DNA of 64,000 nucleotides, from positions 2,232,001 through 2,296,000 of the forward strand of contig NW_027139442.1 of NCBI RefSeq assembly GCF_035084215.1. Direction: 5' to 3'. This DNA comes from Heptranchias perlo (taxonomy: Eukaryota). A model generated the notes under the pieces. That model was not told the DNA's origin and did not search any database. It saw nothing but the letters and a program-made list of their open reading frames with translations. Positions 2,131-45,879 of the stretch are shown one piece after another. The translations under genes were made by a program, and so were the position numbers. The number at the start of each line of letters is the position of its first letter. Position 1 is the first letter of the stretch.

Positions 2131-2711
2131 TTTGGAGAATTAGTTTAAAAAATAAAAATAGAAATGTACAAAAAAAGTGGATAAATTGCAAATTCAACAA
2201 TCTGAATTAAAAACAGAAATGTCCAAACTCACATAAGGCTGATGGTTTGGGTTCTCCTGCCACTCTCAGTCTTCTCTACCTGGGGCACAGGATGAGCAGA
2301 ATGCTTGAATCTATATTTTTTAATGCAGAGTGCGCTGGATGTATGGAATGGACCAGCAAGGGAGGCAGTGGGGCCTGATTGTATCAGCAAATTCCACAGA
2401 GTTGGGAAAGTACCTGATAGCGCTACCTTGGGATATGACAGCCTAGAAATTGGGATCTTTCATTCATTTTTTACACTTGTGCACTTATTTTTATTGATTG
2501 GTGTACCTGGACACCCAAACCCCTCTGCTCCTCCACAGTCCCTAGTTTCTCACCCTTAAGAAAATACTCCCTATTTCTCACCTGATGCCTGCAATAAATG
2601 ATATTTGTATAACTTCCAACATCTTTACGTGGAGATGCCGGTGATGGACTGGGGTTGACAATTGTAAACAATTTTACAACACCAAGTTATAGTCCAGCAA
2701 TTTTATTTTAA

Positions 2712-2752
2712 ATTCACAAGCTTTCGGAGGCTTCCTCCTTCCTCAGGTAAAT
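2712..2752 (-). ncRNA. Minimal hammerhead ribozyme, mirror copy in the left palindrome arm
   Basis: Exact reverse complement of 3069-3109. Confidence 0.75.
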
Positions 2753-3068
2753 GTTCAGGAGCTCCTCGAAGCCTACGCATTTATACATATAGAACAATAC
2801 ATGGTGTTTACAGAATGCCCCTGGAACTGCCCGTTGCCAAGGCAATCACCGTGTTCAGACAGAGAGGTGTCACCTGCAGAACCCCCGAATACACAGTTGA
2901 ATGCACGGTTGAATACACGGTTGAATGTGTATTCGGGGGTTCTGCAGGTGACACCTCTCTGTCTGAACACGGTGATTGCCTTGGCAACGGGCAGTTCCAG
3001 GGGCATTCTGTAAACACCTTGTATTGTTCTATATGTATAAATGCGTAGGCTTCGAGGAGCTCCTGAAC

Positions 3069-3109
3069 ATTTACCTGAGGAAGGAGGAAGCCTCCGAAAG
3101 CTTGTGAAT
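3069..3109 (+). ncRNA. Minimal type-I hammerhead ribozyme (PLE-type)
   Basis: Helix I atttac/gtgaat; core CTGAGGA plus extra A; helix II ggagg-aag-cctcc; GAAA; palindromic AGCT mini helix III; CUU cleavage triplet. Confidence 0.75.
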
Positions 3110-3227
3110 TTAAAATAAAATTGCTGGACTATAACTTGGTGTTGTAAAATTGTTTACAAACATCTTTACGATTCGGGTCTGTTTCCACTCTTCAGTGTCC
3201 AATAAGAAGAGACATAGTGAGACTAGA

Positions 3228-3690
3228 ACTTTATTTAATATTTCAAAATATACTTTATTTCATAAAATTCATGAATAGACACAGTTCAATGTAAATATTA
3301 CAATTACAATTCAAAACAAATACAATACACATCATACGATTCCATTATTACAAGTCAAAACACAGTAAATATCTTCTAACACATGCTGTACATTACAAGG
3401 TGGGATAGCGTTACACGGTTGCCTTTCCCCATAAAGCCTTTGTGTAGGCCGCACCTCGCTTCAGTGTGCACCTCAGCATGAAATACTGGACCTTGGATTC
3501 TGCTAGTGGCCAACACTTGGCCGCGGACAGTTCCCTCGGCTGGAAGACCTGCTGGTTTCGGGGGAACAAAGGGCCTCCCTGACCGAATTGATGGTCTTCC
3601 AGCAGCTGTTGATATCTGTCTCGTTGTGCATCTTGGACAACTGCCCATAGAGGACAGCGACCTGTGTTACCGAGCTGTTGGGATGAACTC
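3228..3690 (-). mobile_element. L1/Tx1-clade LINE 3' fragment (ORF2 C-terminus plus 3' UTR)
   Basis: Minus frames give ETDINSCWKTINSVREAL and AESKVQYFMLRCTLKRGAAYTKALWGKATV*, followed by a T-rich UTR and AATAAA. Paralogue at 52555-52980. Confidence 0.65.
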
Positions 3691-5044
3691 CTCTTCGACA
3701 CCACGGTGTAGGGGTTCATTCTCCGTGGATGAGGTTATCACCTTTTACCTGAATACGCGGATCCATTCGCACACATTCATGTTAGTGTTCGGCAAACACT
3801 GTCTGATGTCTTTCACACACCTTTCGAACCTTGGGGTCAGAGACGTAGGGGGTATTTTCACCTTCACATCTTGGGCGGTAAACTGACTGAGCAAAAATTA
3901 AAATCTGGCCGGTTCTATAAGGGGCGGGTGATCGGCTCTACCAGTTCAGTTCCCAGCGATGGTGAAAATTTCCCTCCACGTGTTATGAACCGATGCAATT
4001 TGAGAAAATGGACCAGCTTGTGGGCTTCGAAGATTGATTCTAGCGCGGAGGTCAGGAATGGTGTGGCCGATTTTAAGTATACTCGCCTGGCAGAAATGGG
4101 GTGGTCGAGGCGAGTAAATGGTATCAGGTCACTTACCGCCCCTTTAACACTGGCGTTCCTGCCTCCACCATCGTGGGTCGTGTCCTGAGAAGAGCGGCCC
4201 GAGCAACACCCACCTGTTTCCGGTCAGGCCACTTGTAATATGTAAATCAGATTATTATGACGTACAGGGGAAACCATTTAATGTTGGTGAAAAATCGGTG
4301 GAGGAGCCGCCCTTTAGATGGGCATTGAGTGGTCGAGAAAACTGAGAAGTTTCTTTTTAACTCATATTTTGTGAGGCAAGGAGCAGCAGGAGAGCTTTCC
4401 CTTGGCCTGCTGCGGCCGTGTGAAATCTCCCGCCCTCTGATCGTCTCAGAAATGTATCAGGAGGTTTCCTTCTCGATCTGTGCAACGAGGCCCAGCCTCA
4501 TGTCTCATTAAACTCCCTGCAGTGAGTAAACATTGCTGCACAGCAGCTCAGAGAGGAAACGATCTCCGGAACTCCCCACTGGAGTTAGAAATTACAAGAA
4601 TATTTTATGAGTTATTCTGTTCTGGTCAAAACAAATGTCCCAATGAACAGGACGCTGTCTGACCCTGACAGCTCACCCTCAGTCCATCCCAGCGGGCAGT
4701 GTGTGTGATGGGGAATAATCATCAACCGAAATGGAGCATTTGATTTTATTCATTACAGGATTAAACATTTAATATTGAAATCATATTATTTCCCGACTAA
4801 TAACAGCAAACCTTTTCATGTTAGAATCAAATCTTGTATTATTTCTCAAAAAGCATTTGTTGGATAAAATATAATTCCTGTCTGCTATTTCCAAATTTAT
4901 TTGAAGTATTGGATTGATATCAGTTACTTCAGTGAACTCATTGGTGTCAATGGATAGTAAAATCAGGCGTAGTGAACAATGGGGGCCCGATCCGCTATCG
5001 CCGACTTACTCCACCGCCAAAGCGGAAAATCCACTCTCTTAATT

Positions 5045-5255
5045 AGCAGTTTAAAAAATTCTTATTCCAGCTGATTTGTAGAATCGCATGTGTTGGGGTT
5101 TGAATTGTGAAGCGGATTTTCTCCGCCAGTTTTACCGTCTCACAGAGACTCTCACCCTGAATCTGTGAAAAGGTTATGACCATGAACTGGGACTGGAGCC
5201 GAACACATCCCCAGTTACGGTGTGGCCTGGACACCCCATTCTCTCTGTTTTATAT
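5045..5255 (+). repeat. Displaced copy of the H4-H1 intergenic spacer (homologous to ~16800-17010)
   Basis: ttattccagctgatttg...ctccgccagttttacc...gactggagccgaacac...cccattctctc is shared with 16818-17000 and, inverted, with 41540-41700. Confidence 0.8.
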
Positions 5256-6189
5256 CAGACAGTATTCCACCTTCAAAAACAGCACTCGAGAGAGAAAGCA
5301 AGACACACACTGTCAGTCTTACACTTCCTATCAGTATGTTCATATCACGCTCAATAGCAGTATCCAACCTTCATATACAGCACCAGAGAGTGAGAGAGAA
5401 AGGGAGACAGATACTGTGACAGAGCGAGCGGAGAGGCACAGTGCAACAGTATCAGTTCCAGACTGACTTGTAAAGTTGCGTTTTATCCAGAAATTCCCGT
5501 TGTAGAGACAGAAGATGCAGTCTTGTCTCTCACTGATATACCAGAGACGGACACACCATTAATCCCACACTCAGGGACAGTGCAGAGAGTGACAAAAACA
5601 ATGTGGGCCGAATTTAACCCTCTCTTGCCTGTTGTACTACATTCGGTTTTGCAGATCAGGGCCGTTCGCTATTACTCTCAGTGACCGAGAGTTTCACTCT
5701 GATTATATTAATACATCATATATTAATAATGGACTGTTGCTGTCAGATATTAATCCTACACGCTCCCAGCAAATACACGGACTCCGACTTTCCTCCCATT
5801 TTTCTCCAGGATTGGTTTGAGAATTCCTGCATCCAGTTTCGGAGTCACACGTTACTTAATGGGTAAAGGGGCCAAGTATGAACAGAATCCATTGGTTCAT
5901 TTCAAAATGTCCCACTTTATCTATGAAAGACTATTTTCCATCAAAAGATACCGAGAGAAACAGCAGGGATGAAAACATCTCGTTTAATAGTTAGAGATTG
6001 TAAAGTCAGTCTGAATTCCAGCGTTAGTCACTGGTGGAATCCCATCTGTTTCCCATTCTGGTGCCTGTTCCTGCACTGCCTGTGGACCCCATTCCCTCTG
6101 ACCTTTCCCTCAGCCCCACTTCCTTTGCTCAGACTCTGAAAAATTCCAATTGGGGAAAGTTTCCATCGATTTGTGCATTGGGAATTAAA

Positions 6190-6460
6190 CCAGATATCTG
6201 CGCATGCGTGACTCAGCCCCGCCCCCAGCGCTGATTGTTGGTGAGCAGAAGAGCGCATGCGCGCTCCCCTCCCCCAGCTCGGCCTGTGGGCGCCATTCCC
6301 TCAGTGAGCGGAAGAAGATGGTTTGAAACAGCCGGGAATGGAGAGATCACGGCCCCCGGGGGAAGGGAGCAAAGAGCAGCCTCGTTACAGCAGCTCATCG
6401 CTTCGGGACCGTGTCCGCAGATGGGCTCAGAGATCGGCATTGAGTCCGGGGGAAGGTCCG
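6190..6460 (+). promoter_or_regulatory. CpG-island promoter/first exon of an unidentified gene, cassette copy 1
   Basis: Two NRF1-type gcgcatgcg motifs, tgactca, GC box ccccgccccc, then cggaag+aagatgg (ETS/YY1-like). Near-identical copies at 20288-20555 (+) and 40340-40610 (-). Confidence 0.6.
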
Positions 6461-7120
6461 GGGGCTGTTTGTAAGAGGCGGAGTGGATCAGGAACTGGTC
6501 CCGGAACATGGAGTGAGCGGGGGAAGGGAGAGGTCATTCTCGGGCTGTGTGTGTACAGGGTGTGTCCAGGGTCAGGGAGTCAGAATGAGAAGAACCTGCT
6601 ATTTAAAATCATTGCTGCTTGCTCTCGCCAGACCAGTAGGGAATGTTCCTGGTTTAGGTCCAGTCTCACCCTGTTTATTGTGATTCGACAGTGAAGAGTG
6701 GAACGGAGCCGGACAGTAAGGATGTGGGGAGTTATGCAAAGAGCATCTATTGCAGGCACCAGGTGAGAAGTGTGAAGGACACATTTTAAACAGCGGCTGT
6801 TTTGTTTCGGTTGAACGGTTAGTCCCATGTGAGAGGGGAGTGGAAATCTGACCTGCACAAAGGACCGTGCCACATCGGGTAGTGCCATTTATGGTTGTGT
6901 TGTGTCTGGATGTCACTAAATTGTTGTAAAACAGCCCACCACTCGTGGTGTGCAGAAGCTGAATGCTGCAGTACTGCAGTGGAGTCAGATACTGACACTG
7001 TTTGTGTTGCTGGTTTTGTGGATAATCAAAATAATCATTAACAAAGATATTAATTCGAACACTTTTGTATTTCCTACCTCACTGGTTCTTGAGTTACAAG
7101 AGAAAAATTTCTTCCTACAG

Positions 7121-7207
7121 GCAAATCCTTGAAGGACCCAGAATCAGTGTTATGTTTCCTCCACTCGAGGCACAAGGAACAGTGCAGCCAACTCCTTCTC
7201 CCACACA
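7121..7207 (+). other. Candidate 87-nt internal exon of the unidentified cassette gene
   Basis: Polypyrimidine tract with cctacag| acceptor and |gtaagt donor. AG and GT are conserved in the copies at ~21234, ~25489 and ~39378 (-). Confidence 0.45.
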
Positions 7208-7699
7208 GTAAGTACATTATCACACACAGCGCACAGAGACACAGACAGGTCATCAGTTCCATAGTCTCAGACAGTAGAAGCACTGACCCAAGTTCCACAG
7301 ACACATTTTCAATCCAACATTCAAACAAAGCAGGTGAGGCAGACACTGTTCCATTTCCCCCGAGCTGAGTCCCGCTGACAGGTAGATACAGAAATCCCAG
7401 TCCAATATCACACTATCAGATTGAAAGGCACTGTGTCAATCTCACAATAGGGCAACATCAGCTACGAATTGAATACCAGATCGAAATCACACATGGTACT
7501 CGATTGAAAGGGACAGAATGAAACCCAATAATTTACCCTGAGATTCCAATTGAATAATTGCCCAGAATTCACACACTCACGTGAGTTTAATACACTGTTC
7601 GAATGGATATTGCATGTATCATGTGATACAAATTGCATACGTGTCCAAAACTCATGTACAGTATCAGATTGAGAAATGCTGTGAGAGTGTAACCTGAGA

Positions 7700-10600
7700 A
7701 ACAAATTAGATATCAGTTTATAATACACTCATAGTATGAGATTTATAGATACAGTATCAATTCTATTAGTACAGACTGAGCTACACATTATACACCATTT
7801 GAAAAGTGTCACGAAATCAATTTGAAAGATACATTATCATTCACAACAGTACTCACAGAGATACAGATTTAATAGTAGCTCAAAAAGCAGACAAATTATG
7901 TGATTAAAACCTACAGCGTCAAATCCTACAGAGGACCCATATATACCAGTTAATGAGAAATAAGATCTAAACATGAAGATATTAAAGGTACAATTTTGAA
8001 CGCCATAATGCAATCTTAGAGAATAATTACATACAGATACAGAATGAATCTCACACTCAGGTACAGTACCAGAGACTGACAGATGCAGAAGGAATCCCAA
8101 ACTCACATACAATACTAGAGACTGACAGACACAGAGTGAATCCCACACTCACATATGGTACCAGAGATGACAGATACAGAATGAATCCCACACTGACACA
8201 CTGTTCCAGAGACTGAGAGATACAAAATGAATCACACATTAGTGCAGGCTGAGTAACATTACTTACCAGTTAAAGAAGTATCAGATTGAAAGATACAGTA
8301 TCAATTACATTATTGCAGACTGATCTGCACGTTATAAACCACTACAAAAAACTGATGCAAATTCACTCTGAAATATACAGTATTCCATTGATGCAGACTG
8401 AGCTGCACGTCATATATAAGTTCAAAAATGTCAACATATCAGTTTGGAAGATAAACTAATGCACAATTGTGTTCACATCGATACAGATTTAATAGTAGTC
8501 CGAAAAGTGCCCACATTCTCTGATTATATTCTACAGCATTTCATTATCAACCAATTAAACACTGGGGAAAATATGCACAAATTGAGGTATTAAAGATACA
8601 GTTTTGAACACCATACTGAAAACGGAGAGACTAATTACATACAGATAAAGAATGAATCACATATTCAGATAGAGGGCCAGAGACTGACACACAGAATGAA
8701 ACCAGCACTCACACAATATAACAGTGACTGACAAATACCGAATGAATCCTACATTCACACACAGTACAAGGGACTAACAAATATAGAATGAATCACACAC
8801 TCCCACAATACCAGAGCCTGACAGATACAGAATGAATCTCATACTCACAGACAGTACTAGGGACTGACAGATACAGAATGAATCCCACACTCACACACAG
8901 TACTGGGGACTGACAGATACGGAATGAATCTCACAGTCACACACATTTATGCAGTCTGAGTTACACATTACATATCAGTCCAAAAATCTCATAGTGTCAG
9001 ATTGAAAGATACAGTATCAATTCCATTAGTGCAGACTGATCTACACATTATAAACCACTACAAAAAACTGATACCAATTCAGACTGAAATACACAGTATT
9101 CCTTTCATGCAGACTGACCTACACATTATATACAAGGTCAAAAAAGTCACCATATCATTTTGGAAGATAAACTAATTCACAATACAGATTTAATAGAAGT
9201 CCAAAAAGGTCCACATTCTCTGATTATAACCAACAACATTACATTTTAAAATGTATCATTATCAACCATTGAAACACTGGGAAAAATATTGATACATTGA
9301 GGTATTACAAATAGAGTTTTGAACAACATACTGTAAACGAAGATACAAATTACATATAGATAATGAATGAATCTCACACTCAGATGAAGGGCCAGAGACT
9401 GACACACAGAGTGAAATCAGCACTCACACAACCTAACAGTGAATGACAGATACCGAATGATTCCTGCACTCACACACTGTAGCACAGACTGAAAGAGACA
9501 AAATTTATATCACTCACATACAGTACCAGAAATTGATGGATGCAGAATGAATGACTCCCTCACATATAGCAGCTGAGACTGACGGGAACAGAATGAAACC
9601 CTCATTCGCACACAATACCAGAGACTGATAGATACAGAATGAATCCCACACCCACATACAGATACAGAATGAATCCCACACCCACGTACAGTAACAGAGA
9701 CTGATAGATACAGAATGAATCCCAATCCCACGTACATTACCAGAGACTGACAGATACAGAATGAATCCCACACTCATACACATTACCAGAGACTGACAGA
9801 TACAGGATGATTCCCACACTCATACACAGTACCAGAGACTGACAGATACAGGATGATTCCCACACTCACACACAGTACCAGAGACTGACAGATACAGGGT
9901 GATTCCCACACTCACACACAGTACCAGAGACTGACAGATACAGGGTGATTCCCACACTCACACACAGTACCAGAGACTGATAGATACAGAATGAATCCCA
10001 CACCCACATACAGATACAGAATGAATCCCACACCCACGTACAGTAACAGAGACTGACAGATACAGAATTAATCCCACACTCACACACAGTACCAGAGACT
10101 GACAGATGCAGAATGAATTCCACACTCATACACAGTACCAGAGACTGACAGATGCAGAATGAATCCAACACTCACACACAGTACCAGAAACTGAGTGATA
10201 CAGAATAAATCCCACACTCATACACAGAACCAGAAACTGACAGGAACACAATGAATCCCACACTCACACACAGACATTATTGCAGATCTGAGCTACATAT
10301 TACACACCAGTCCAATAATTTCACAATGAACATATTAAAAGGTACATTATCATTCACAATATCGTTCAGAGATTAAGATGTAACAAAAGTCCAAAACTCA
10401 CACACGTTGTTTGATTGAAGAAAATCGAAAAATATATCCATGGTTACAAATTAAATACTTGACGAAAAACTGCTTATACTTTAAAGTATTAAGGCTGCAG
10501 TTTGAAGTAAAATAGTGGGAACTGAAATAAGAATACAGAATGAATCCAGATTTGCACTTTGTCTCAGGGATTGAATTACAGAATGAATGCCACACTGAGA

Positions 10601-11514: not shown

Positions 11515-11650
11515 CCGATTGGTTTCTTCAGGTATCCAATCAGAGAGTTACAGTGAATAATTATTGTTACGTCATTCCCAGTGACCCAATCATGATCATT
11601 GCCTTCCCCATCCCTCATTAGCATAGGGCTGTGGGGCTGCCTATTTAAGT
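11515..11650 (+). promoter_or_regulatory. H2B promoter (CCAAT boxes, CRE-like ttacgtca, octamer variant ATTAGCAT, TATA)
   Basis: attgg 11518, ccaat 11536 and 11586, ttacgtca 11567-11574, attagcat 11617-11624, tatttaa 11642-11648. Confidence 0.75.
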
Positions 11651-11701
11651 CGAACTTGGAGCGGATTTGGGTCATTTCTGTTTCTGAAATTGAGTTTGAA
11701 A

Positions 11702-12076
11702 ATGCCTGAGGACAAGAAAGCAGCTCCCAAGAAGGGCGCCAAGAAAACCTTGAGCAAAGCACCAGCCAAGGGCGGCAAGAAGCGGAGAAAGTCGAGGAAG
11801 GAGAGTTACTCCATCTACGTCTACAAAGTGATGAAGCAGGTTCACCCCGACACCGGCATCTCCTCCAAGGCCATGAGCATCATGAACTCCTTTGTGAACG
11901 ATATTTTCGAGCGCATCGCGGGTGAGGCTTCCCGCCTGGCCCATTACAACAAGCGGGCGACCATCAGCTCCCGGGAGATCCAAACCGCGGTGCGCCTGCT
12001 GCTGCCCGGGGAACTGGCCAAGCACGCTGTGTCGGAAGGGACAAAGGCGGTGACCAAGTACACCAGCTCCAAGTAA
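11702..12076 (+). CDS. H2B: Histone H2B (replication-dependent), 124 aa
   Basis: [12 protein letters not shown]...[26 protein letters not shown]...[13 protein letters not shown]; intronless, with 3' stem-loop. Confidence 0.99.
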
Positions 12077-12107
12077 AACTCCACAATGTACTGAAAAAAA
12101 AAACAAC

Positions 12108-12123
12108 GGCTCTTTTAAGAGCC
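12108..12123 (+). ncRNA. Histone 3' stem-loop (SLBP site) of H2B
   Basis: GGCTCTTTTAAGAGCC-ACCCA followed by HDE-like gaaagtgctg. Confidence 0.97.
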
Positions 12124-12771
12124 ACCCACAACCTCTCTGAAAGTGCTGCATTTCTTATATATTTTCTTAGTATCTTTTTAATACCGCGATATTGTTCCAA
12201 TCCAATACTGATACTGTAACTACGCCATTGAAATTTCTGACACATGAACTGAACGCGAGTTTATGATCCGCTCCTTCCCATTCGCTTTGTTCTAAAAGCG
12301 TTATTATTCCAGCCACGAACACACCCTGAATGACCACCTTAGCAGTGCTATTATCTCTTTGAATTCAGTCTCCGAAATGTTTACCAACTGATGTGAAAAT
12401 CCCCATATTAACAGCAACCACACCCCTTGCAGTAAAACAGCGGAGTAGGGGCAGAATGAGAACTCCGTCCGGGTCCCTCTTTTCACAGAAGCACACCCGG
12501 CTCTGTGAGAAGGGACCAATCTATAACGTGTCACTTTTATAAAGATTAAATTGAAATGTGTCCCTTCACGGAATGCTGTGAATGGGGATTTAGTCCAGTC
12601 CGATACTGTTTGAAAGCGATGACAGAATGAGCTATAATTTAAAGCAGGTTTTAAAATAGCGCCAGCGATTGGTGACGTGTAGCGCTGAATAAGACAAGGT
12701 AAAAAGAACGGGTTTAAAATCTTGTGCTCAGGGCGACATTGATCTAAATCCGGTGGTTTACTGGACTGAAA

Positions 12772-12880
12772 TTGGCGGGCTTTTTGAAATTCATAAAATT
12801 CCTGGTCTGACCGTTGAGGCCGATAAATCTCGCCCTCTTCTGTTTCTCAGCTATCTGATTGGTTAATGAAATATGCAAAT
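12772..12880 (+). promoter_or_regulatory. H2A promoter with CDE/CHR-like element, CCAAT and octamer
   Basis: TGGCGG-gctt-TTTGAA 12773-12788; attgg near 12858; ATGCAAAT 12873-12880. Confidence 0.65.
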
Positions 12881-12926
12881 GAGGTGTATTAGAGAACAAC
12901 AAATCAGATGATCTTTCAGTCCATAA

Positions 12927-13376
<450 letters not shown>

Positions 13377-13406
13377 AGCGGCCAAGAATTAATCTGATAA
13401 CACAAA

Positions 13407-13422
13407 GGCTCTTTTCAGAGCC
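13407..13422 (+). ncRNA. Histone 3' stem-loop of H2A
   Basis: GGCTCTTTTCAGAGCC-ACCCA, HDE gaaagggctg. Confidence 0.97.
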
Positions 13423-14681
13423 ACCCACTGTATCTATGAAAGGGCTGGATACTGTTTGAACGGAGTCAGAAATTAATTTAATAATAAACAATCTGTTTCA
13501 GATCTGGTGATTTCACGTTCCTTGATTCCGATTCTGGATCTAACTGCCTCCCGTTAGTTCCAAACTAACGATCGCTTGTTAAATACAAATGATCTGTTTC
13601 AGTACTCGCCAACCTCCAATAGGTTGAAATATACAGATTGTATGGAAAATGAGACAAATAATCAGTTCATTAAACTGGGCGGGTGGGATACAGAAATAAC
13701 TGGTGAGTTTGATCATCGGCAACAAGAGGCACTCTATTGTGTTCGAGCAATTATTTTAAGTGTTATTTACAGTCTCATCCTCCCACAACACTTACTCGGT
13801 CTGACTTCCATTACCCAGAAGGTGACGGATGTGTTGATTATTGTGTCAGCGATTGCTGAATCAATGATTGAAATCTGTCTGTTACTAGATGAGAGTGAGA
13901 GATTTATTCTGTCCCTGTCAGTCTGACGAGTACCGCAGTGAATGTGACACTAAGTTTCACACTGCTTCTGATTCTAGCGCTGAAAGAAAACACTTTGGTT
14001 CTATTATTGCGAGTTACAGTGAAACAGCCTCTGTCACTACAGCTGGAGAGGGACAATAGTCAAACTCCATTTGATCCGAGACTGGTTCTTTAGAGATTAA
14101 AGTATTTCCAACAGAGCCAAGCTGACACTATATCGGAAATGAGAACTTGCATCTCTTGTACTTTGGACGCTGCACGATCCTCTCCCTGTATATATGTCCG
14201 AGTTAGATTGACACTGGGGGTGCAGATACCTGATGTGAAAGAGTAGGATCGAATTCAGCCGTTTCTGTACCTGTTTACCAGTAATTTCACTGTCCAAATG
14301 TGGCACTGGATGTGATGATGGGACTCAGTCTGCGCAGTGAGTGGAATTCACCTCCCTCCAATCCTGGGTGTGATGTGTGGAAATTAAACTGTGTCGTTTT
14401 CAAATACCTGCTGTTGGTTAGTCTGGAATTGTCACCCTTGTCTGTTTGTGTATGTTTAACACTGCTACTGTACCTGCCCAGAACTTCACAGATCAGCTCT
14501 ACTCCGAACTATCTCCCATGTTATAACCGGCTATGATATGGACAGTTTATAAATGCTAGTCGTGCCCCGCTTGACATCCGCTACTTCCCTTCATGAATTT
14601 CCCGTGTAATTATTTTTTAAATCTGCACTGTCGCACCATTTCAACCCAGGAGATCACAGCTCTTTCCATCGCCGATTTGGT

Positions 14682-14697
14682 GGCTCTGAAAAGAGCC
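14682..14697 (-). ncRNA. Histone 3' stem-loop of H3
   Basis: Reverse complement GGCTCTTTTCAGAGCC; HDE GGAAAGAGCTG at 14657-14667. Confidence 0.97.
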
Positions 14698-14730
14698 TTT
14701 GTTGCACTTGGTGCTGAAGCCGGGTCGGGT

Positions 14731-15153
<423 letters not shown>

Positions 15154-15204
15154 TCACAAAACAACCTGAGACACACAGACTGTTAATACGGAGTGCTCTC
15201 TGGG

Positions 15205-15600
15205 GCCGCCTTTTAAATGGTCTAAGGGAATCCGCCCCTGGCCTGCGATTGGCTGAAGTCCCACATCCTGTCAGGGATGGACAGCCCCGGGCCTGTGATT
15301 GGCTGGTTTGAACCGAGCTTTCACAGTCAGACCGAAACGGTGGGAGGTATTGGGCCCCCTTGGCTGAGCTGAAATCAATCATCAATTTCAAAAAGCCCGC
15401 CAATTTCAGAGCATCAAATAACAGTTTCAAGAAAATCTAATTTCCCTCCAGCAATTTAAAAATCCCACTGTTTATAATCTCCATTATTTCCCACTCCTCA
15501 GCTCAAATCTCAGGCTGTTTCACATTCCGGTTCATTCTCTGATCTGTCTGCAAACGGGACAAAGTCAGCTTCAATTTCAAAAATCCCGCCAGTTCCGGCC
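15205..15600 (-). promoter_or_regulatory. H3 promoter: TATA-like, two CCAAT boxes, two CDE/CHR-like elements
   Basis: TTTAAAA near 15211; CCAAT 15248-15252 and 15298-15302; TGGCGG-N4-TTTGAA at 15387-15402 and 15576-15591. Confidence 0.65.
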
Positions 15601-15948
15601 CGGTGAACCGGTCCTCACATCGAACTGATAATTGAATGAGGGCAGGAAATAAACACCGAGCAGAGAGGACACAGCGGGAGAGGGAGTGAGGAGGGATTTT
15701 ACTCCGCACGGAGAATGTAATATCTGGGGAAAGACTCTGTATCACCGCCTGTACATTTATACCGTGAAATCGGGAATTCCGCTCCTTCTCTCGGGATGGC
15801 CGAGAACCCCGGCCGTTGTTTCTGATCTCCCTGTACCGAGTGTTGGGGAATCTCCCCATACTAATTAAATATCGGAAACTGCTTCCCCACCCCGAGATCT
15901 TTCCTCTCCCCGTTCCCAGGTCAGTGCTCTCTCTGTGAGGCGGTGGGT

Positions 15949-15964
15949 GGCTCTTAGAAGAGCC
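15949..15964 (-). ncRNA. Histone 3' stem-loop of H4
   Basis: Reverse complement GGCTCTTCTAAGAGCC-ACCCA. Confidence 0.97.
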
Positions 15965-15999
15965 TTTGTTTTGTGTCCGGTTAGAAAGGGTCGAGTTGT

Positions 16000-16320
<321 letters not shown>

Positions 16321-16419
16321 TCACTCAGATCGCTGCTGAATGAACAGCTAACTTATAATGCTTCTATTTTTATGCATCCTACCCCGACCTGACTGAAACA
16401 TGCACAGGGTGAGAGAGGG

Positions 16420-16500
16420 AGGGGAGGAGACAGAGTGAAATATTAAACAGAGAGGGGAGGAGACAGAGTGAGATATTAAACAGAGAGGGGAGGAGAGAGT
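16420..16500. repeat. 33-bp purine-rich tandem repeat (~2.5 units) upstream of H4
   Basis: aggggaggagacagagtga(a/g)atattaaacagag at 16420 and 16453, partial at 16486. Confidence 0.8.
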
Positions 16501-17159
16501 CAGAATGATGGACAGAGGGTTAGAGCGGCCTCTGATCTTCCAGCTCCACCTCCAGCTTTCTCCACCCGCCAATTTCAAACCGTTTTTCGATAATAGAACC
16601 GAAACACAACGCTCCGCACAAACCCTTACAGACTCGGGCTTCATATTCAAGGATTCCCAGAAACCCGCAGCTTTTAAATAAGCCACGTTACAATTAACAG
16701 TCAGTAATATTCCTCCCTTCTCTTACAAGTCAACCCGCCTCCTCCCATTTCAGTCCTAGACCCGATTCTATCTCCCCACACATCCCCTCCCAGACGGGTT
16801 CAGCAGTTTACAAACACTTTATTCCAGCTGATTTGAAGAATCTCATGTGTTCAGGTTTGAATTGTGATAGCGGCGGATCTCCGCCAGTTTTACCCTGTCA
16901 CGGACTCTCGCCCTGAATCTGTGAGAAAAAATGAACTGAGACTGGAGCCGAACACACGCCGGTTACAGTGAGGCCCGGCCCGGACATCCCATTCTCTCTA
17001 TTTTATTTTAGACAGTGGGGGAGGGGCGGGGGGAGCGAATATAAGCCAGTCACCAGGACCCTGGGTCCATTTGGAATGATTTCTATCTGAAATCTGAGCC
17101 CGGCCCCGGGACAGGAATCATCTGATTCCCGGATCAGCTCTTTTCTGAGAGACGTGGGT

Positions 17160-17175
17160 GGCTCTGAGAAGAGCC
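17160..17175 (-). ncRNA. Histone 3' stem-loop of H1
   Basis: Reverse complement GGCTCTTCTCAGAGCC-ACCCA; HDE GAAAAGAGCTG near 17135-17145. Confidence 0.97.
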
Positions 17176-17211
17176 GTTGGGTTCAGATGGTCAAAAGTTG
17201 CACTTGATTTT

Positions 17212-17841
17212 TTACTTCTTTTTGCCCGCTGCTTTCTTCGGCTTTGCTGACTTCGGTTTGGGCTTGGCCCTCGGTTTTTCCACCTTCTTCGCCTTCGCCT
17301 TCAATGGTTTGGGGGTCTTGGGCTTCTTCGCCGCCGCTTTTTTCTTAATTGGTGATTTCGCCGCCTTTTTCGTGGTCGATTTCTTGGCGGCTGTTTTCTT
17401 GGCGGTTAATTTCTTGGCCGTTAATTTCTTGAGGGCTGTTTTTTTGGCCGCTGGTTTCTTTCCTGGAGATTTCTTGGTCACTTGTTTCTTCACCTTCTTT
17501 ACCACTTTTGCCTGGGTTTCCTTCTTAGCGACTCTGAAGGAGCCCGAGGCGCCCGTGCCCTTGATCTGCACCAGGGAGCCTTTTTCCACATTTCTCTTGA
17601 TACTTAATTTGATCTGGGACCTGTGCTTCTCCACATCCAGGCCTTTGGTAGCCAGAACCTTCTTTATCGCGGCCAGGGATATCCCCTTGCGATCCTTGCA
17701 ATTCGCCGCAATCTTGAGGATCTGTTCGCCCAACGGGGGACCGGCTGTCTTGTGTCGGGGAATCGCCTTCTTCTTCGGAGCATTGGTTTGAGCGGCGGCG
17801 GCGGCAGAAGGTGCCTTTTCGGCGGCTGCAGTGTCTGTCAT
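17212..17841 (-). CDS. H1: Linker histone H1, 209 aa
   Basis: Winged-helix domain ending LVQIKGTGASGSFR; Lys/Ala-rich tail with S/TPxK motifs; stem-loop; promoter GC box (17941) and H1 box AAACACA (17986-17992). Confidence 0.97.
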   Translation of the reverse strand: MTDTAAAEKAPSAAAAAQTNAPKKKAIPRHKTAGPPLGEQILKIAANCKDRKGISLAAIKKVLATKGLDVEKHRSQIKLSIKRNVEKGSLVQIKGTGASGSFRVAKKETQAKVVKKVKKQVTKKSPGKKPAAKKTALKKLTAKKLTAKKTAAKKSTTKKAAKSPIKKKAAAKKPKTPKPLKAKAKKVEKPRAKPKPKSAKPKKAAGKKK

Positions 17842-19704
17842 GTCCGGGACTCAGTCGAAAATCTCTCTGACAGTCAGAGCTGGGTCAGAAATGAAACGAG
17901 AGGCGGCGGCACAGAGCAACTTAAAGGCACAGAGCGGACGGGGCGGAGACATCCTGCTGTCAGCTCCAGGCCCCTCCAGCCTCTCTGTGTTTCTCTCCCC
18001 TCTTAAACTTCCCGATTCCAATTAAAATCAGGCATTCCAGAGTCCCAGACTAGCCCCTTCCTATCTCTAACACCGGAATGTTTGCTGTCGTAAAACTTTC
18101 ACCCGAATTAAAAGCACCAATTTCGATATAAACCCGTTTCATTGATGCACTGATCGCGCTCTCTCACCCGATCGCTGACATGATCTCGGTTTTTCGGCTA
18201 AATCTTGAATTGAACTAAAACTTATCCTTAAATTTCCACTTCGGAACTCGGCAGGCGAGGAGGGCGATCGCTTAACGGTGATTTTTTTTGAAGTTAACTC
18301 AAAAGGGTCTCGGAAATCCGGCGATGAGACCGGCCACACAAACACAGTGACATTAATCTAACCCGTCCGCCCCTTGAACACACTCTCTCTGACACAACGT
18401 TCACATCTTCACATTCACAGGACAAACTGGTCGCCAGATTGACAATTCCCGAGACAGGCTTTCCTCCCCGCTCGGCCTGTGCTGCCGATTCTCGGGGGTT
18501 AGTTGCAGTTTCCCAGCTCAGTATCTGTTAAACACTCTGTGGCCGGCGCTCCTCACAATGTCTGGTCCCCAGATTCAGGGGCAGGAGCCAATCACAGCTG
18601 TGGATGTGATAATTCACATCTGGTTTTACATTATTAGATTGTTCGCACACAGGGATATGTGTGGTTTTGACGATAATAATAATTTTCCGCTCTTGGCTCC
18701 TCCAGTCTCTCTGTGTTTCTCTCTCCTCCTAAACTGACTGACAGACAATAGTAACTAATGTCCGATCCATCCCATTCTCAACACCCAGAGACGGCTCGTT
18801 ACTGAATAAATTCAACACTCAAAGGCAGTCCAGTTACAGGCTGTTTCTCTCCATCTTTCTTTACAGGATTGGAGACAGTTAAGTGCACCGTCAGACCGGC
18901 TCATAAAGGACAGAGACGGTTTGAACAACACCACACAGACACAGAATCAGTCTTTCATTTTTTTTCAGTGTGTCCATATTACGCTCAGTAACAGTATCCC
19001 GCCTTCATGTACAGAACTAGAGAGAGAGAAAGACAGACAGAGACACACAGGCAGACAGGCATAGTATCCGTCTCACACTTCTCATCGGTGTGTCAGTTTC
19101 ACACATCAGAAACAGTATCCCACCTTCACGGACAGCGCTCGAGAGAGAGTGATACAGAGAGAGACACAGACAGACACAGTATCAGTCTCACACTTCCCAT
19201 CATTGTGTCCGTTTCACAAACAATAAACAGCATCACACCTTCACGTACAGCGCTAGAGAGAGAGATGCAGACAGGCACAGTATCAGCCTTACGGTTCCTT
19301 TCAGTGTGTCTGTACCACGCTCAAGATCAGTATCCCACCTCCATTTACAGTACAAAAGAGAGAAAGAGAAACTGACCTGTAATTGCCTGTTTTCATCCAA
19401 TAACAAATCAGGAGATATTCCATTCCAATTGCTAACCAAAGTGGAGTGACAGAAGTTGCAGTCTCATTTCTCACTGATATTATTTCGGAGACAGACACAT
19501 TATTCATCCCTCTCTCGGGGACAGAGTCACACATTTAACCCTCTCTTCCATTTTGTACCCTCAGCAATCTTGCAGCTCAGTATTACTCTCAGCAGCCGAG
19601 AGTTTCACTCCGATTAAAATAAACTGGGACTGTTGCCGTTAGATATTATTCCTACACGGTCCCAGCAAATACACCGACTCCCACTTTCCTCCTATATTTT
19701 TCCA

Positions 19705-19892
19705 TGATGTGGAGATGCCGGTGATGGACTGGGGTTGACAATTGTAAATAATTTTACAACACCAAGTTATAGTCCAGCAATTTTATTTTAAATATGTTAC
19801 ATTTGCCTGAGGAAGGAGAAAATCTCCGAAAGCTTGTGAATTTAAAATAAAATTGCTGGACTATAACTTGGTGTTGTAAAATTGTTTACAAT
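19705..19892. mobile_element. Second, shorter palindromic PLE derivative with a 12-bp TSD
   Basis: tatatttttcca is duplicated at 19693-19704 and 19893-19904. Same tail (tggagatgccggtgatggactggggttgacaa) and inverted ~50-bp arms. Paralogous sites near 5800 and 40990 are empty. Confidence 0.85.
19801..19841 (+). ncRNA. Minimal hammerhead ribozyme (variant)
   Basis: atttgc-CTGAGGA-a-ggaga aaa tctcc-GAAA-gc-tt-gtgaat; helix II covaries relative to 3069-3109. Confidence 0.75.
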
Positions 19893-20287
19893 TATATTTT
19901 TCCAGGAATGGTTTGAGGAATCCTCCCTCCTGTTTCGGAGTTACACGATCTATTATCAGTGCAGAGTCCAAGAATGAACAGAACCCATTGGCTCATTCCA
20001 CAGCCGTCCACTTTATCTCTGAAAGACTCTTTACCATCAAAAGATACCGAGAAAAACAGCAGGGATGGAAACATCTAGTTTAATAGTCAGAGATTGTAAA
20101 GTCAGTCTGGATTCCAGCGTTAGGCACAGGTGGAATCCCATCTGTTTTCCATTCTGGTGCCTTTTCCTGCACTGCCTGAGGACCCCATTCCCTCTGACCT
20201 TTCCCCCAGACCCACTTCCTTTGCTCAGACTCTGAAAAATTCCAATTGGGGAAAGTTTCCATCGATTTTTGTATTGGGAATTAAAAC

Positions 20288-20555
20288 AGATATCTGCGCA
20301 TGCGTGACTCAGCCCCGCCCCCATAGCTGATAATTGGTGAGCAGAAGAGCGCATGCGCGATCCCCTCCCCCAGCTCGGCCTGTGGGCGACATTCCCTCAG
20401 TGAGCGGAAGAAGATGGTTTAAAACAGCCGGGAATGGAGAGATCACGGCCCCCGGGGGAAGGGAGCAAAGAGCAGCCTCGTTACAGCAGCTCATCGCTTC
20501 GGGACCGTGTCCGCAGATGGGCTCAGAGATCGGCATTGAGTCCGGGGGAAGGGCA
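20288..20555 (+). promoter_or_regulatory. CpG-island promoter/first exon, cassette copy 2
   Basis: Near-identical to 6190-6460. Confidence 0.6.
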
Positions 20556-21849
20556 GGGGGAGTCCGGGGACTGTTTTGTAAGAGGCGGAGTGGATCAGGA
20601 ACTGGTCCCGGAACATGGAGTGAGAGGGGGAAGGGAGAGGTCATTCTCGGGCTGTGTTTGTGCAGGATGTGTCCAGGGTAAGGGAGACAGAATGGGAAGA
20701 AACTGCTATTTAAAATCATTGCTGCTTTCTCTCCCCAAACCAGTAGTGAATGGTCCTGGTTTCGTTCCAGTCTCACCCTGTTTATTGTTATTGGACAGTG
20801 AAGAGTGGAACCAGAGCCGGACAGTGAGGATGTGGGGAGTTATACAAAGAGCGTCTGTTGCAGTCACCAGGTGAGAAGTGTGAAGGACACAATTTAAACA
20901 ACGGCTGTTTGCTTTCGGTTGAATGTTTCGTCCTCTGGGAGAGGGGATTAGAAACCTGACGTGTGCATAGGTCCCCGCCCCATCGGGTCGTCCCATTCAT
21001 GGATCAGTGCAGAGGTTGGGTTGTGTCTGGATGTCACTAAATTGTTCTAAAACAGCCCAACACACCTGGTATGCAGAAGCTGAGTGCTTCATTACTGCAG
21101 TGGATTCAGACACTGACACTGTTTGTATGGCTGGTTTTCATAATGATCATTAACAGAGAGATTAAACTGATCACCTTTGTATTATCTTCCTCTCTGGTTC
21201 TGGAGTTACAACAGTTACTTTTTCTTCCAACAGGCAAATAATTGAAGGGCCAAGAATAAATGTGATGTTTCCTCCACCCGAGGCACAAGGAACAGTGCAG
21301 CCAGCTCCTTCTCACACACGGTAGGTACATTATCACTCACAGAGCACAGAGACACAGACAGGTCATCAGTTCCACAGTCACAGGCATCACAATTATTCAG
21401 TCTCAGACTGATCCCAAGATTCGGAGACACATTTTCAATCCAAGAGGGAAACAGAGCAGTTGAGGCAGACGCTTTTTCCATTTCGCCCTAACTCAGTATC
21501 TACTAGTATCTACCCGAAAAGGTAGATACAAAAAACCCAGTCCAAAGTCACGCTTTCAGATTGTCAATCTCACAGTAGAGGAACATTAGCTACGAATTAA
21601 ATATCAGACAGAAATCACACATGAAATCCAATGGAAAGGTACAGAATGAATCCCAATAATGTACCCCGAGATTCAAATTGAATACTGGCCCAGAATTCTC
21701 ACACACGTATGAGTTTAATACATGTAGTTTCGATTCGAATAGTGCATCATGAGATATAAATTGCATACCAGTCCAAAACTCTCAGACAAACAATTGGATT
21801 GAGAAATGCTGTGACAGCATAACATGAGAAACAAATTAGATACCAGTTT

Positions 21850-23052
21850 ATAATACACTCATTTTGAGATTTAAAGATACAGTTTCAATTCTATTAGCAC
21901 CGACTGAATTACACATTACATACCAGTCCAAACATATCACCACATCAGTTTGAAAGATACATTATCATTCAAATTTGTGTTCACAGAGATACCAATTTAA
22001 TCATAGTCCAAAAAGCGCACAAATTATCTGATTGAAATCTTCCAGCATCAAATCCTAAAGTGTATCCATATTTTCCATTTAAATAATGACAAAAACTATT
22101 TAAACATTAAGATATTAAAGCTACAGCATTGAATGCAATAATATAATCTGAGAGAAAATTATAGGCAGATACAGAATGAATCTCACACTCACATAACGTA
22201 CCAGAGACTGACAGATGCAGAAGGAATCCCAATCTCTCACACAGTACCAAAGACTGACAGATACAGAATGAATCCCACACTCACATACAGTGACAAGGAC
22301 TGACAGATACCGAGTTCATCCCACACACTCATAAAGCGCAAGAGACTTACAGATAAAGTATGAATCCCACACTCATACAAGCGACCTGATACTGAGATTC
22401 AGAATGAATCCCAAACTAACATACAGTATGAGAAACTGAATATATGGAAATAAATCAACACACACGCACAGTACCAGCGAAGGTGTATACAGAATGAAAC
22501 CCACACTCGCAGACAGTACCAGGAACTGACAGGAACAGACTGAATCTCACTCACACACAGTAACAGAGACTGACATATACAGAATGAATCCCACACTCAC
22601 ACACAGTACCAGAGACTGGCAGGAACAGACTGAATCTCACTCACACACAGTAACAGAGACTGACATATACAGAATGAATCCCACACTCACATACAATACC
22701 AGAGATTGACAGATACCGAATGAAACCCACACTCACAGACAATACCAGAGACGAACATATACAGAATGAAACCCACACTCACAGACAGTACCAGAGACTG
22801 GCAGGAACATAATGAATTCCACACTCACACACAGTACCTTGGACATACATATACAGAATGAATCCCACACTCACACACATTACCAGGATTTGAGAAATAC
22901 GGAAGGAATCCCACAATCACGCAGTGCCAGAGACTGACAGATACACAATGAAGCACACACACACACACACACAGTACCAGAGAGTGACCCAAGGTACAGA
23001 ATGAATTCTACATTCACACACAGTACCAGGGAATGACAGATACAGAATGAAT

Positions 23053-24300: not shown

Positions 24301-26039
24301 CTCTACTGGACGTAAGCGAGAACTGTAAAAGAGAGGAACAAATTCACATGATCTGTCGTTACAGAAACAGTACAATCTGCAATGTGAGGAAAGTTTCTGT
24401 CTGTAACTTCTATCTCGTATTTTTGCGCATTTTGACAGTGAAAAATGAAGACAATTCATTCATAATAAAGTTTTTGTTTTACTCATTCGATAGTTGTGAT
24501 TTTGCCCCATTATATTTCACTGTACATTGCGCAGTATTTCTCTCTGATTTCTCAGGACACGATTTACATTGCTCCTCTACCCCATTTAGATTCTTATTTT
24601 CCAAGCAGTACGTGGCCTCCTTATTCCCCCTGGCAAAATGTAGCACCTCACACTTTTCTATATTGAAATTGAATGGACATTTGCACGGCCGTTCAGCAAG
24701 CTGATTTTGTCACAGTCATCCTCAGTATAGACAATACTCCCGAAATTTAACACAGCATTACAAGTAGTGTTTGATCCAACAAAATGTACTTGTAGCTCGT
24801 CTCCATTCCAGTTTTTCTAAATCCCACTCGTGCAATATAATGTGAAGAATGAGTTTATCTTCTGTCCCTCTCTCTTCCATAAACTTCAATGACCCGGGGT
24901 TTGGGGACATCTACTGGCCGGATGCAGAACTGCAACAGTTCGGAACAAATTGCTGAAACCGGACAATGTGCAGTGTGAGCGTGTTTTTGATTGGTGGCAG
25001 GATTCAAATCTGATTTTTTTTAACCTGCCCATTAACCTTTATTGTTTGTTATTGAAAAGCAAATAGTGCCGGAAAGTAAGGATATGGGGAGTTAGACAGA
25101 GAGCATCCATTGGAGGCATCAGGTGAAAAGTGTGACGGACACATTTTAAACAGCGGCTGTTATGTTTCGGTTGAACGGATAGTCCCATGGGAGAGGCGAT
25201 TAGAAAGCTGACCTGTACAAAGGTCCCTGCCCCATCGGGTAGTCCCATTCATGGATCAGTGCAGGGGTTGGGTTGTGTCTAGATTTCAATAAATTGTTGT
25301 AAAATAACCCAATACCCCTGGTGTGCAGAAGCTGAGTGCTGCAGTGCAGTCAGACACTGACACTGTTTGTATCGCTGGTTTTCATTTGTGGATATTACAA
25401 TGATTACTAACAGAGATTCAATTGATCACTTTTGTATTTTCTACCTCACCTGTTCTTGAGTTACAAGAGATACTTTCTCTTTCTACAGTCAAATCCTTGA
25501 AAGACCCAGAATCAGTGTGATGTTACCTCCACCCGAGGCACAAGGAACAGTGCAGCCAGCTCTTTCTCACACACAGTATGTACATTATCAAAAACAAAGC
25601 ACAGAGACACAGACAAGTCATCAGACCCACAGTCTCAGACAGCAGAAATAGTCAATCCCACACTGATCCCAATCCAACAGTCAAACAGAGCAGGAGAGAC
25701 AGACGGAATTTCCATTTCACAACAACTCAGTACCGCTGACCGAAGTTAATTAATTCCCAGTCCAAAATCACACCCACTATCAGATTGAAAGGCACTGTGT
25801 TAATCTCACATTAGTTCAGCCTTAGCTACAAATTAAATACCCGATAGAACTGACACATGGTACCGATTGTTATGTACAGAATGAATCCCAATAGTGTACC
25901 CCAAGATTCAAATTAAATACCAGCCCACAACTCACACACATTATGAGTTTAAAGATGCAGTATTCATGCCAATAGTGTACACTGAGATACAAATTAGATA
26001 GCAGTTCAGATGTTACCCATGTTTGACTCACATATTTGT

Positions 26040-30530: not shown

Positions 30531-30976
30531 TACAAGCATTTAATACAGCATTACAACGAATGTTTGGTCTAACAAAATGTTCTCCATTCGGAGTTTTTCG
30601 AAATCCCACTCTTGCAATATAATGTGAAGAATGAGTTTATCTTCTGTCCCTCTCTCATCTGCAAACTTCAATGACCCGGGGTTTGGGGACATCTACTGGC
30701 CGGAAGCAGAACTGCAACAGTTCGGAACAAATTGCTGAAACCGGACAACGTGAAGTGTGAGCGTGTTTGTGATTGGTGGCAGCTATTAAATCAGATTGGA
30801 TATCTGAAGAAACCAATCAGAGAGTGAAAGGAAACGTTGACAGAGCATCACTCCCAATGAGCCAATCACAACATGCCTTCCCCCATCCCTCATTACCATA
30901 GGGCTGTCGGGCTGCCGATTTAACCCGAGCTCGGAGCAGATTTGAATCATTTCTGAGTCTGAAATTGAGTTTGAAA

Positions 30977-31351
30977 ATGCCTGAGGACAAGAAAGCAGCT
31001 CCCAAGAAGGGCGCCAAGAAAAACTTGAGTAAAGCACCAGCCAAGCGCGGCAAGAAGCGGAGAAAGTCGAGGAAGGAGAGTTACTCCATCTACGTCTACA
31101 AAGTGATGAAGCAGGTTCACCCCGACACCGGCATCTCCTCCAAGGCCATGAGCATCATGAACTCCTTTGTGAACGATATTTTCGAGCGCATCGCGAGTGA
31201 GGCTTCCCGCCTGGCCCATTATAATAAACGCCACACCATCAGCTCCCGGGAGATCCAGACCGCCGTGCGCCTGCTGCTGCCCGGGGAACTGGCCAAACAC
31301 GCCGTGTCGGAAGGGACAAAGGCGGTGACCAAATACACCAGCTCCAAGTAA
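30977..31351 (+). CDS. H2B: Histone H2B copy 2, 124 aa (several substitutions)
   Basis: Intact ORF; stem-loop GGCTCTTTTAAGAGCC at 31390-31405. Confidence 0.95.
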
Positions 31352-32224
31352 AACTCCACAATCAACTGAAAAAGAAACTTAAACAAAAAGGCTCTTTTAA
31401 GAGCCACCCACAGTCTCTCTGAAGACGCTGTACCGACACTTCTGCATGGACTCATTTTACTGTCGATAGTTTGATACTAACTGTCTCTATATAACTTCTG
31501 CTTTTGTAATTTCTCTTGAAATCTGGAAGATTCTCATAATCACTGCCAGGTATAATCTGTGCGTCGCTTTTTATTTATTCCCAAGAACAAAAATCGTGTC
31601 CCTGATCCTCTCATTCCCGTTCATATTCCGCCCCTTCCTCCGCATCTGCCCCTTCAGAGCCGTCTTAAGGCGGTGGATTAGAGTTCAGTCATTTCTTTCT
31701 CCTTTTCACGTTTATTTGTTCATTATTCCGGAATATCACTTTCAGAACCGCAATCCTTTGAAATGCAGCAACGCTGAAAGGGACTTCACACCGAGTACAG
31801 AATAGTCTAAAGACTCTATAACTGTTCGACTTCTTACACCAGGAGTCTCGGCTCCGGTTTCGATCGCGCTGCAGCTCCTGTGAACAGGGATCAATCCACA
31901 ATCCGTGGTTTGTTACTATTACAAAGATTGAGCTGGAATCTGTCCCGTTACAAAATGGGGCTTTATTCCCGCCGGATTGAAAGCGAACGGAGAATGAAGC
32001 GACTTCTAACTGGAATGTAAAAGATTCTGGAAGTTGTGACGGAAAACGTGGAATAACAGAGTAAAAGGAGAGAGATTTTTAAACCTTTGTCTTTACGCGA
32101 CATTATTTACTAAATCCGCTTCTGGTGTTACAAATATATTGGCGGGCTTTCCAAATTTCAAAAAAACGGTTCAGTTCGGTATTTTCCGCCTTTTTCGCAT
32201 TGCCGGCTATTGATTGGTGAATAA

Positions 32225-32770
<546 letters not shown>

Positions 32771-32924
32771 ATCGGCCAAGATTTAATCTGATAAAACCAA
32801 AGGCTCTTTTCAGAGCCACCCACTGTATCTGTGAAAGGGCTGGTTACTGTCTGAAGAGACTGACCTATTGATCACAGGTGTCCCCGGTCTACGTTAATAT
32901 ATTACATTACTACAGCGGTTAAAG

Positions 32925-45860: not shown

Positions 45861-45879
45861 AGAACAGCATCAATAAAGC

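Follow-up and report, generated by a model that had tools for sequence, protein, structure and literature searches.

The locus near the start of this 64,000-nucleotide stretch of DNA (hereafter the window) raises the question of how an ORF-less inverted unit, with one hammerhead ribozyme on each strand, came into being. The sequence-only reading that drew attention to the unit derived it from a PLE, and saw in it either a by-product of PLE integration or a non-autonomous ribozyme hairpin mobilised as such.

The first unit, copy 1, has a left arm at 2662–2895 (minus strand), which corresponds to the pLTR-like 3′ end of an element pointing left, and a right arm at 2926–3159 (plus strand), which is the same sequence pointing right. 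The arms are 234 nt each, with a single mismatch at 2802, and enclose a 30-nt loop (2896–2925). An unpaired PLE-type tail of 32 nt (2630–2661, minus strand) is attached to the left arm and has no counterpart on the right. An exact 12-mer at 2618–2629 and 3159–3170 surrounds the unit as a TSD; its innermost base on either side, such as the last base of the left TSD, could equally belong to the element, giving a length of 11–12 bp. These coordinates reproduce all the dimensions that the sequence-only reading had given for arms, mismatch, loop, tail and TSD. Its description of the unit as fully palindromic is true of the arms and not of the whole, in which 468 of 530 nt are palindromic. The longest exact inverted arm in the window measures 140 nt, against 0–16 nt in shuffled controls (10 of 10 shuffles).

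The arms of copy 1 extend 110 nt upstream of a TATA-like box and end in a short tandem repeat. The loop consists of three diverged 12-nt tandem units (2887–2922) and the beginning of a fourth, with a 2-nt overlap with the right arm (2926–2927). Telomerase-like reiteration was rejected as the origin of these repeats, since the units differ mutually at two positions and the arms at 1 of 234; being more diverged from one another than the arms are, the loop repeats look older than the insertion. The tail is AC-rich in the sense of the element and forms the 3′ side of a stem-loop with the pLTR end (z −2.3; 5 of 200 shuffles fold equally well). A short near-palindrome at 2833–2846, mirrored in the right arm, is reminiscent of an RFX X-box.

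The flanks of copy 1 align gap-free to five empty paralogs, located at 52441–52555 and 40018–40132 on the plus strand and at 6656–6769, 20764–20877 and 25030–25129 on the minus strand. The empty site near 52480 that had been proposed is real, as a diverged paralog with ~79% identity to the copy 1 site and 7 of the 12 TSD bases, and four more can be aligned beside it; the site at 40018–40132 shares 9 of the 12 TSD bases.

The sequence-only reading overlooked a second inverted unit of the same element, copy 2, which self-BLAST revealed at 19705–19892 (188 nt), and nhmmer across the window found four arms only, that is, two copies. Copy 2 is bounded by an exact 12-bp TSD (19693–19704 and 19893–19904), and its site aligns colinearly with two empty paralogs (5750–5865, plus strand; 40930–41045, minus strand). 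It begins with a tail of 35–36 nt (19705–19739, minus strand), followed by a left arm (19740–19793, minus strand) that holds only the portion 3′ of the hammerhead, five junction nucleotides (19794–19798, minus strand), and a right arm (19799–19892, plus strand) that runs from the equivalent of 3067, in copy 1 coordinates, to the tail-less end and contains an intact hammerhead at 19801–19841. Compared with copy 1, it has another fold point, another length and one hammerhead only. In 2 of 2 copies the arrangement is head-to-head and inverted, the tail is present at one end only and an exact 12-bp TSD encloses the whole unit, so that tail, inversion and TSD occur together in both; the empty sites are in each case paralogs, not alleles. 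The near-identity of the arms might raise the suspicion of a fold-back artefact of sequencing or assembly, which we consider next to negligible: on either side the flanking DNA runs colinear with empty paralogs, TSDs surround both copies, there is one arm mismatch in each copy, and a one-sided tail is impossible from read fold-back.

A descriptor for minimal type I hammerheads returned three sites in the 64 kb, with C3 at 2746 (minus), 3075 (plus) and 19807 (plus), compared with a mean of 0.03 in 100 shuffles and none in shuffles at the strict setting. This agrees with the earlier claim of one minimal hammerhead per arm of copy 1, placed here at 2712–2752 (minus strand) and 3069–3109 (plus strand). 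Covariance models did not corroborate the call: Rfam gave no hammerhead at the gathering score in the window, nor at E ≤ 10 in 2500–3300, and the ribozyme assignment is for this reason based on the descriptor and the published consensus. By these, the motif has the CUGANGA core, GAAA, an NUH triplet, helices I and II and a palindromic helix III. In the right arm of copy 1, helix I of 6 bp is followed by the core, a bulged A, helix II of 5 bp, GAAA and a palindromic AGCU helix III, with cleavage predicted between 3103 and 3104 and AATAAA at 3114. Copies 1 and 2 differ at 4 of 93 shared nt, and all four changes fall inside the 41-nt ribozyme and are compatible with its structure (in helix II both partners of a pair change, from G-C to A-U; helix I has one A-U turned into G-U; the fourth change lies in a loop). 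Random placement keeps the ribozyme in 743 of 200,000 trials when any change is allowed (0.4%) and in 6,975 of 200,000 when only transitions are (3.5%), in a comparison of two distinct sequences only.

The hammerhead conforms to the published PLE consensus, and PLE insertions with this kind of tail, head-to-head arms and TSD have been described; these structural marks support a PLE origin of the arms, in line with the original attribution. Were the arms instead to come from another repeat class, with hammerhead and tail coincidental or borrowed, the lack of an Rfam hammerhead match would be accounted for, and the arm's link to PLEs is a structural one; this reading is nonetheless highly improbable, given the rarity of descriptor matches in shuffles, the covariation that keeps the ribozyme, and the co-occurrence of tail, inversion and TSD in 2 of 2 copies. 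Protein comparisons identified no coding relative. Two stop-free frames across copy 1 (126 and 106 aa) have no Pfam match and no homolog at E ≤ 0.01. HMMER on the arm frames gave three weak matches (E 1e-5 to 3e-4), of which two are unrelated repeat proteins and the third came without a matched stretch. Searches for relatives of the arm returned nothing relevant in prokaryotic genomes, in plasmids or, for two arm frames, in protein searches; for prokaryotic genomes and plasmids, this is expected of an animal repeat.

Several other classes were considered and rejected. An autonomous EN+ PLE does not fit, as no single ORF with PLE RT and GIY-YIG exists in the copy 1 frames or among the scanned ORFs (44 of the 115 ORFs of at least 100 aa in the window). 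The scanned ORFs contain no PLE ORF, and with nhmmer finding only the four arms, the autonomous RT+GIY-YIG partner that the sequence-only reading had envisaged was not found in the window. Non-LTR retrozymes are built as head-to-tail arrays in which at least two hammerheads share a strand, which is not what we see. A MITE or foldback DNA transposon is at odds with the one-sided tail and with copies of 530 and 188 nt with differing junctions. Known microRNA precursors were also set aside: matches to MIR840 (57.6 bits against an Rfam gathering score of 150) and mir-3145 (47 against 98 bits) are generic hairpin matches.

We conclude that both units are, very probably, ORF-less by-products of the integration of an endonuclease-bearing PLE, formed as it inserted. 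The outer ends, tailed and tail-less, are common to 2 of 2 copies within 1–4 nt and the junctions are different; shared ends with a junction unique to each copy, seen here within the window and for n = 2, point to an integration by-product rather than to a palindromic family that is mobilised. Of the two options first offered for this locus, the by-product is thus the one strengthened by the second copy, and the mobilised hairpin the one that loses ground. A palindromic, ribozyme-bearing element of the MITE or retrozyme type, non-autonomous and copied as a whole hairpin, would suit the compact, near-symmetric, young and TSD-bounded copy 1, and pLTRs can mobilise DNA in trans according to the accessible part of PMC3846280. 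We judge it improbable, because the only other copy in the window differs in junction, length and ribozyme count, because a full-length copy 1 RNA would be a duplex of −475 kcal/mol, and because the termini are asymmetric and a head-to-tail array is absent.

How such a by-product forms is best approached through copy 2, which is more informative on this point than copy 1. Its five junction bases (19794–19798) equal element positions 3066–3070 in left-arm orientation, after which the left arm resumes at the equivalent of 3108; the palindrome axis of copy 2 therefore lies at 3066, and its left arm is without 3071–3107. This deletion of 37 nt has unique breakpoints, and its end positions 3071 and 3107 form a base pair of helix I; 16 of 2,701 possible deletions have paired ends. 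Helix I has a pairing probability of 0.61–0.77 in the sense RNA and of 0 in antisense RNA and in DNA of either strand. Since the tail is found in the left arm alone and the hammerhead in the right arm alone, each arm has private sequence and cannot have arisen simply by DNA copying from its partner. The left arm might alternatively have started at a ribozyme cleavage product; this was rejected, because the arm begins 4 nt downstream of that point and the 5 nt that follow agree with the 5′ side of helix I, so that a skip fits copy 2 better than a cleavage product.

These observations suggest, with somewhat better than even confidence, that the by-product was made through two separate cDNAs joined head-to-head. 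An RT–GIY-YIG protein, presumably supplied by an autonomous copy elsewhere, would nick the two strands of an AT-rich site at positions offset by 12 nt, and the staggered nicks would leave two 3′-OH ends. From each of these a separate cDNA would be primed on sense RNA, starting in one case at the tail end and in the other at the tail-less end 32–36 nt upstream. Both cDNAs would stop and be joined at their 3′ ends; the resulting unit would be head-to-head, tailed on one side only and enclosed by a TSD. In the junctions observed there is an overlap of 2 nt in copy 1, and copy 2 has an axis of 1 nt. Copy 1 would have derived from a long RNA, truncated in the short tandem repeat, and copy 2 from priming near the 5′ end of an RNA that started in the pLTR, its two arms running to 30 nt past the TATA box. 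In copy 2, one cDNA may have jumped across a folded, uncleaved hammerhead, as its one junction suggests. PMC11167929 describes nicking and extension of each of the two strands by a PLE protein, RT initiation at two sites that delimit the PLE tail, a predicted protein dimer, uncleaved RNA as the main substrate and a lack of RNA-seq reads ending at the cleavage site. Against the model, the 4 ends here share no nick motif, and the ATT motif of the anole protein is present at 1 of 4 cleaved-strand ends only.

The chief rival, which we hold to be possible though distinctly less probable, is that a single tail-primed cDNA folded back and was copied nearly to its start, the asymmetry of copy 2 being due to a later deletion in a palindrome prone to instability. 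Central deletions are known in long palindromes. The arms of copy 1 share their 5′ boundary and differ at 1 of 234 nt, and its junction has 2 nt of pairing that a fold-back could use; because the two arms stop within 30 nt of each other, fold-back is the simpler account of copy 1, which by itself fits either mechanism equally well. Palindromes at inverted PLE junctions have also been published and interpreted as self-priming, and in a variant proposed in the accessible text of PMC3846280 it is an antisense RNA that self-primes. Against fold-back, copy 2 needs a second event that ends exactly on a helix-I pair formed only in sense RNA. Fold-back alone also gives no reason for the copied arm to end 32–36 nt short in both copies, a stop that matches the second RT start site of PMC11167929, as far as that source is accessible. 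The argument for two cDNAs turns on a single junction, read after the fact, and copy 2 itself allows a check on no more than 4 of the 5 bases in it. That junction could instead be a short snap-back, and DNA slippage at a 4-nt direct repeat (3069–3072 and 3108–3111), with a 2-nt duplication, is another possible source.

The two-cDNA reading places the axis of copy 2 at a predicted start of transcription. The TATA-like box lies at 3036–3042 on the plus strand (mirrored at 2779–2785 on the minus strand), and start sites follow a TATA box by 30–31 nt. An Inr-like ACATT begins at 3067, and we predict from the sequence a start site at 3066/3067, 30–31 nt past the TATA-like box, which would function as a promoter element; the axis of copy 2 is 30 nt after the box. 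In silico, RNAs beginning at 3062–3069 fold both hammerhead helices with probabilities above 0.9. With 19–57 nt of upstream sequence both helices fall to ~0, and with 87–117 nt to 0.18–0.28. The stretch between TATA and predicted start (3043–3066, plus strand) pairs with the hammerhead in a duplex of −18.8 kcal/mol and unfolds it in these models; shuffling the 24 nt that follow the TATA box gives 2 equally disruptive sequences in 300, and shuffling the entire upstream arm gives 22 in 300, and the total energy of this anti-ribozyme fold is unremarkable (z −0.89). The folding models thereby suggest that the ribozyme would fold at the 5′ end of the mRNA and would be off in the downstream pLTR.

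The same models bear on what copy 1 might do after insertion. In its whole RNA the arms pair at −475 kcal/mol and helices I and II have a probability of 0; as the antisense arm is transcribed first in either direction, read-through RNA would form a duplex of ~234 bp that hides the ribozyme, and the masking that had been proposed earlier is borne out in silico. Only RNAs from the internal TATA sites could, on this modelling, fold the copy 1 ribozyme. The two hammerheads are on opposite strands, so that one RNA holds one sense ribozyme and no dimer is available in cis. Modelled energies are −19.7 kcal/mol for the active dimer, −22.2 for a pair of monomers and −28.5 for the most stable cofold, with tertiary contacts and help from protein lying outside the model. 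A CpG-rich stretch (CpG o/e 0.88) ends ~500 nt upstream of copy 1, which makes read-through into the unit possible. Copy 1 has most likely been inert since its insertion.

The genomic surroundings are rich in repeats. Both insertions lie inside multi-kb units repeated at 74–86% identity (5045–8238, 19227–22371 and 38600–41740), and long minisatellite arrays accompany these units. A replication-dependent histone cluster occupies 11600–17900, 30900–32850 and 42694–42739, with six ORFs (two H2A, two H2B, H3 and H1, among the 44 of 115 ORFs scanned) and seven 3′ stem-loops, including the one at 42.7 kb. An intronless GPR139-like receptor ORF at 53889–54815 (minus strand) belongs to a family that has expanded in sharks and rays. 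Since 119 of the best 120 listed relatives of this GPCR ORF carry names from sharks, rays or skates, and the remaining one is unnamed, we take the host for a cartilaginous fish. The sole RT match in the scanned ORFs, at 59989–60453, belongs to a broken LINE (59340–61550) that is not a PLE and that we take, by its motifs, to be of CR1 type. Two LINE 3′-end pieces of ~210 nt, 82% alike, stand inverted tail-to-tail, 410 nt apart, at 45036–45861, and a cluster of ~63-nt units, 80–88% alike and in direct and inverted orientation, is found at 48287–48699. A tRNA-like sequence at 44454–44525 (45 bits in Rfam) is probably a pseudogene. To the right of copy 1, broken reading frames at 3230–4240 (minus strand) end in an AT-rich stretch 70 nt from the unit; they recur in the paralog at 52.5–53.8 kb, have no Pfam match and look like an old retroelement 3′ end.

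Taken singly, the locus is an unremarkable PLE scar in a histone region full of repeats; nothing points to a host function, and the value of both copies is mechanistic. The formation of PLE inverted structures and the role of the hammerhead are called open questions in the accessible part of PMC8557442. Two copies in 64 kb suggest many more in this genome, and the positions of their junctions relative to start site, helix I and cleavage site would allow two cDNAs and fold-back to be told apart from sequence alone, and would also bear on ribozyme folding in vivo. If true, an RT jump at the base of helix I would be in vivo evidence for a folded, uncleaved ribozyme in the template. We offer, tentatively and with more doubt than conviction, the idea that short inverted PLE copies preserve the transposition reaction in their junctions like fossils. 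A dimeric protein would make one cDNA per nicked strand and start site and join the two head-to-head; with priming at whichever tail is closest to the 5′ end of the mRNA, both cDNAs would reach the start site, as in copy 2; and a helix-I skip and a ribozyme that folds only at the 5′ end of pLTR-initiated RNA would complete the picture. Palindromes like copy 1 might furthermore supply dsRNA steadily, as with Penelope in Drosophila, where siRNAs from its inverted repeats are described in the accessible portion of PMC3681739.

The two-cDNA reading, the ribozyme skip and the upstream switch were not found in the literature searched, which was mostly without subscription journals and some supplements; the same body of literature yielded no dedicated account of shark PLE structure. 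Within their accessible portions, the alignment rows of PMC4209133 gave no cartilaginous fish and that paper no upstream ribozyme-unfolding stretch, the main text of PMC11167929 no treatment of inverted insertions, the papers on inverted-pLTR Penelope insertions no copy in which one arm has a deletion of ribozyme size, and PMC12910113 nothing of relevance.

The architecture of copy 1 itself is already published for PLE insertions, as far as the accessible sources go. Rotifer Penelope elements have an inverted pLTR, a one-sided tail of 31 bp, a TSD of 9–10 bp, junction palindromes and head-to-head order (PMC3846280), and the same features are given as general for PLEs in what is accessible of PMC8557442, PMC8969392 and PMC2377424. 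The head-to-head inverted pLTR of our copies is like that of Adineta Pen2/Pen2a (PMC3846280), of the PLE scheme in PMC8557442 (Fig. 2) and of D. virilis form C (PMC2377424). Further likenesses to inverted-pLTR Penelope insertions, in the accessible descriptions, are the one-sided tail (31 bp there, 32 and 35–36 nt here), a TSD round the whole unit, a small junction palindrome, and a TATA box with Inr-like ACATT in the pLTR; the D. virilis Penelope is described as having a TATA-less internal promoter (PMC2377424), which counts against the start site predicted in our copies. Unlike those insertions, the copies described here have only 30 or 5 nt between the inverted ends, no ORF and no direct pLTR, and their TSD is 12 bp long, compared with 8–10 bp in the rotifer.

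The hammerheads resemble the minimal hammerheads of metazoan PLEs, as far as PMC4209133 is accessible, in the core, the bulged base before helix II, G10.1-C11.1, the palindromic 15.2-16.2, the NUH triplet and the AU-rich flanks, and their GCUU at helix III and the cleavage triplet also occurs in turtle and rotifer motifs. Their helix II of 5 bp with a 3-nt loop differs from that set. The same paper reports a bracovirus PLE with an opposite-strand motif at its 5′ end and, in Schistosoma, dual minimal hammerheads 100–700 bp apart on opposite strands, a range that includes the 329 bp between the C3 positions of copy 1. Non-LTR retrozymes, reported from a chondrichthyan genome in the accessible text of bioRxiv 10.64898/2026.07.22.740005, are likewise non-coding, PLE-derived and equipped with a type I hammerhead; they are head-to-tail with at least two same-strand ribozymes, whereas the copies here are head-to-head with one ribozyme per strand. 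In Poseidon of Anolis carolinensis (PAc; PMC11167929), the hammerhead contains the start of the ORF, and the tail is located 111–118 nt into that ORF, unlike copy 1, which has no ATG from the hammerhead to the tail end. PAc and the copies described here nevertheless have in common two element ends with an AC-rich tail between them that takes part in a stem-loop, targets rich in AT and uncleaved-ribozyme templates, the last of these as our proposed mechanism would have it.
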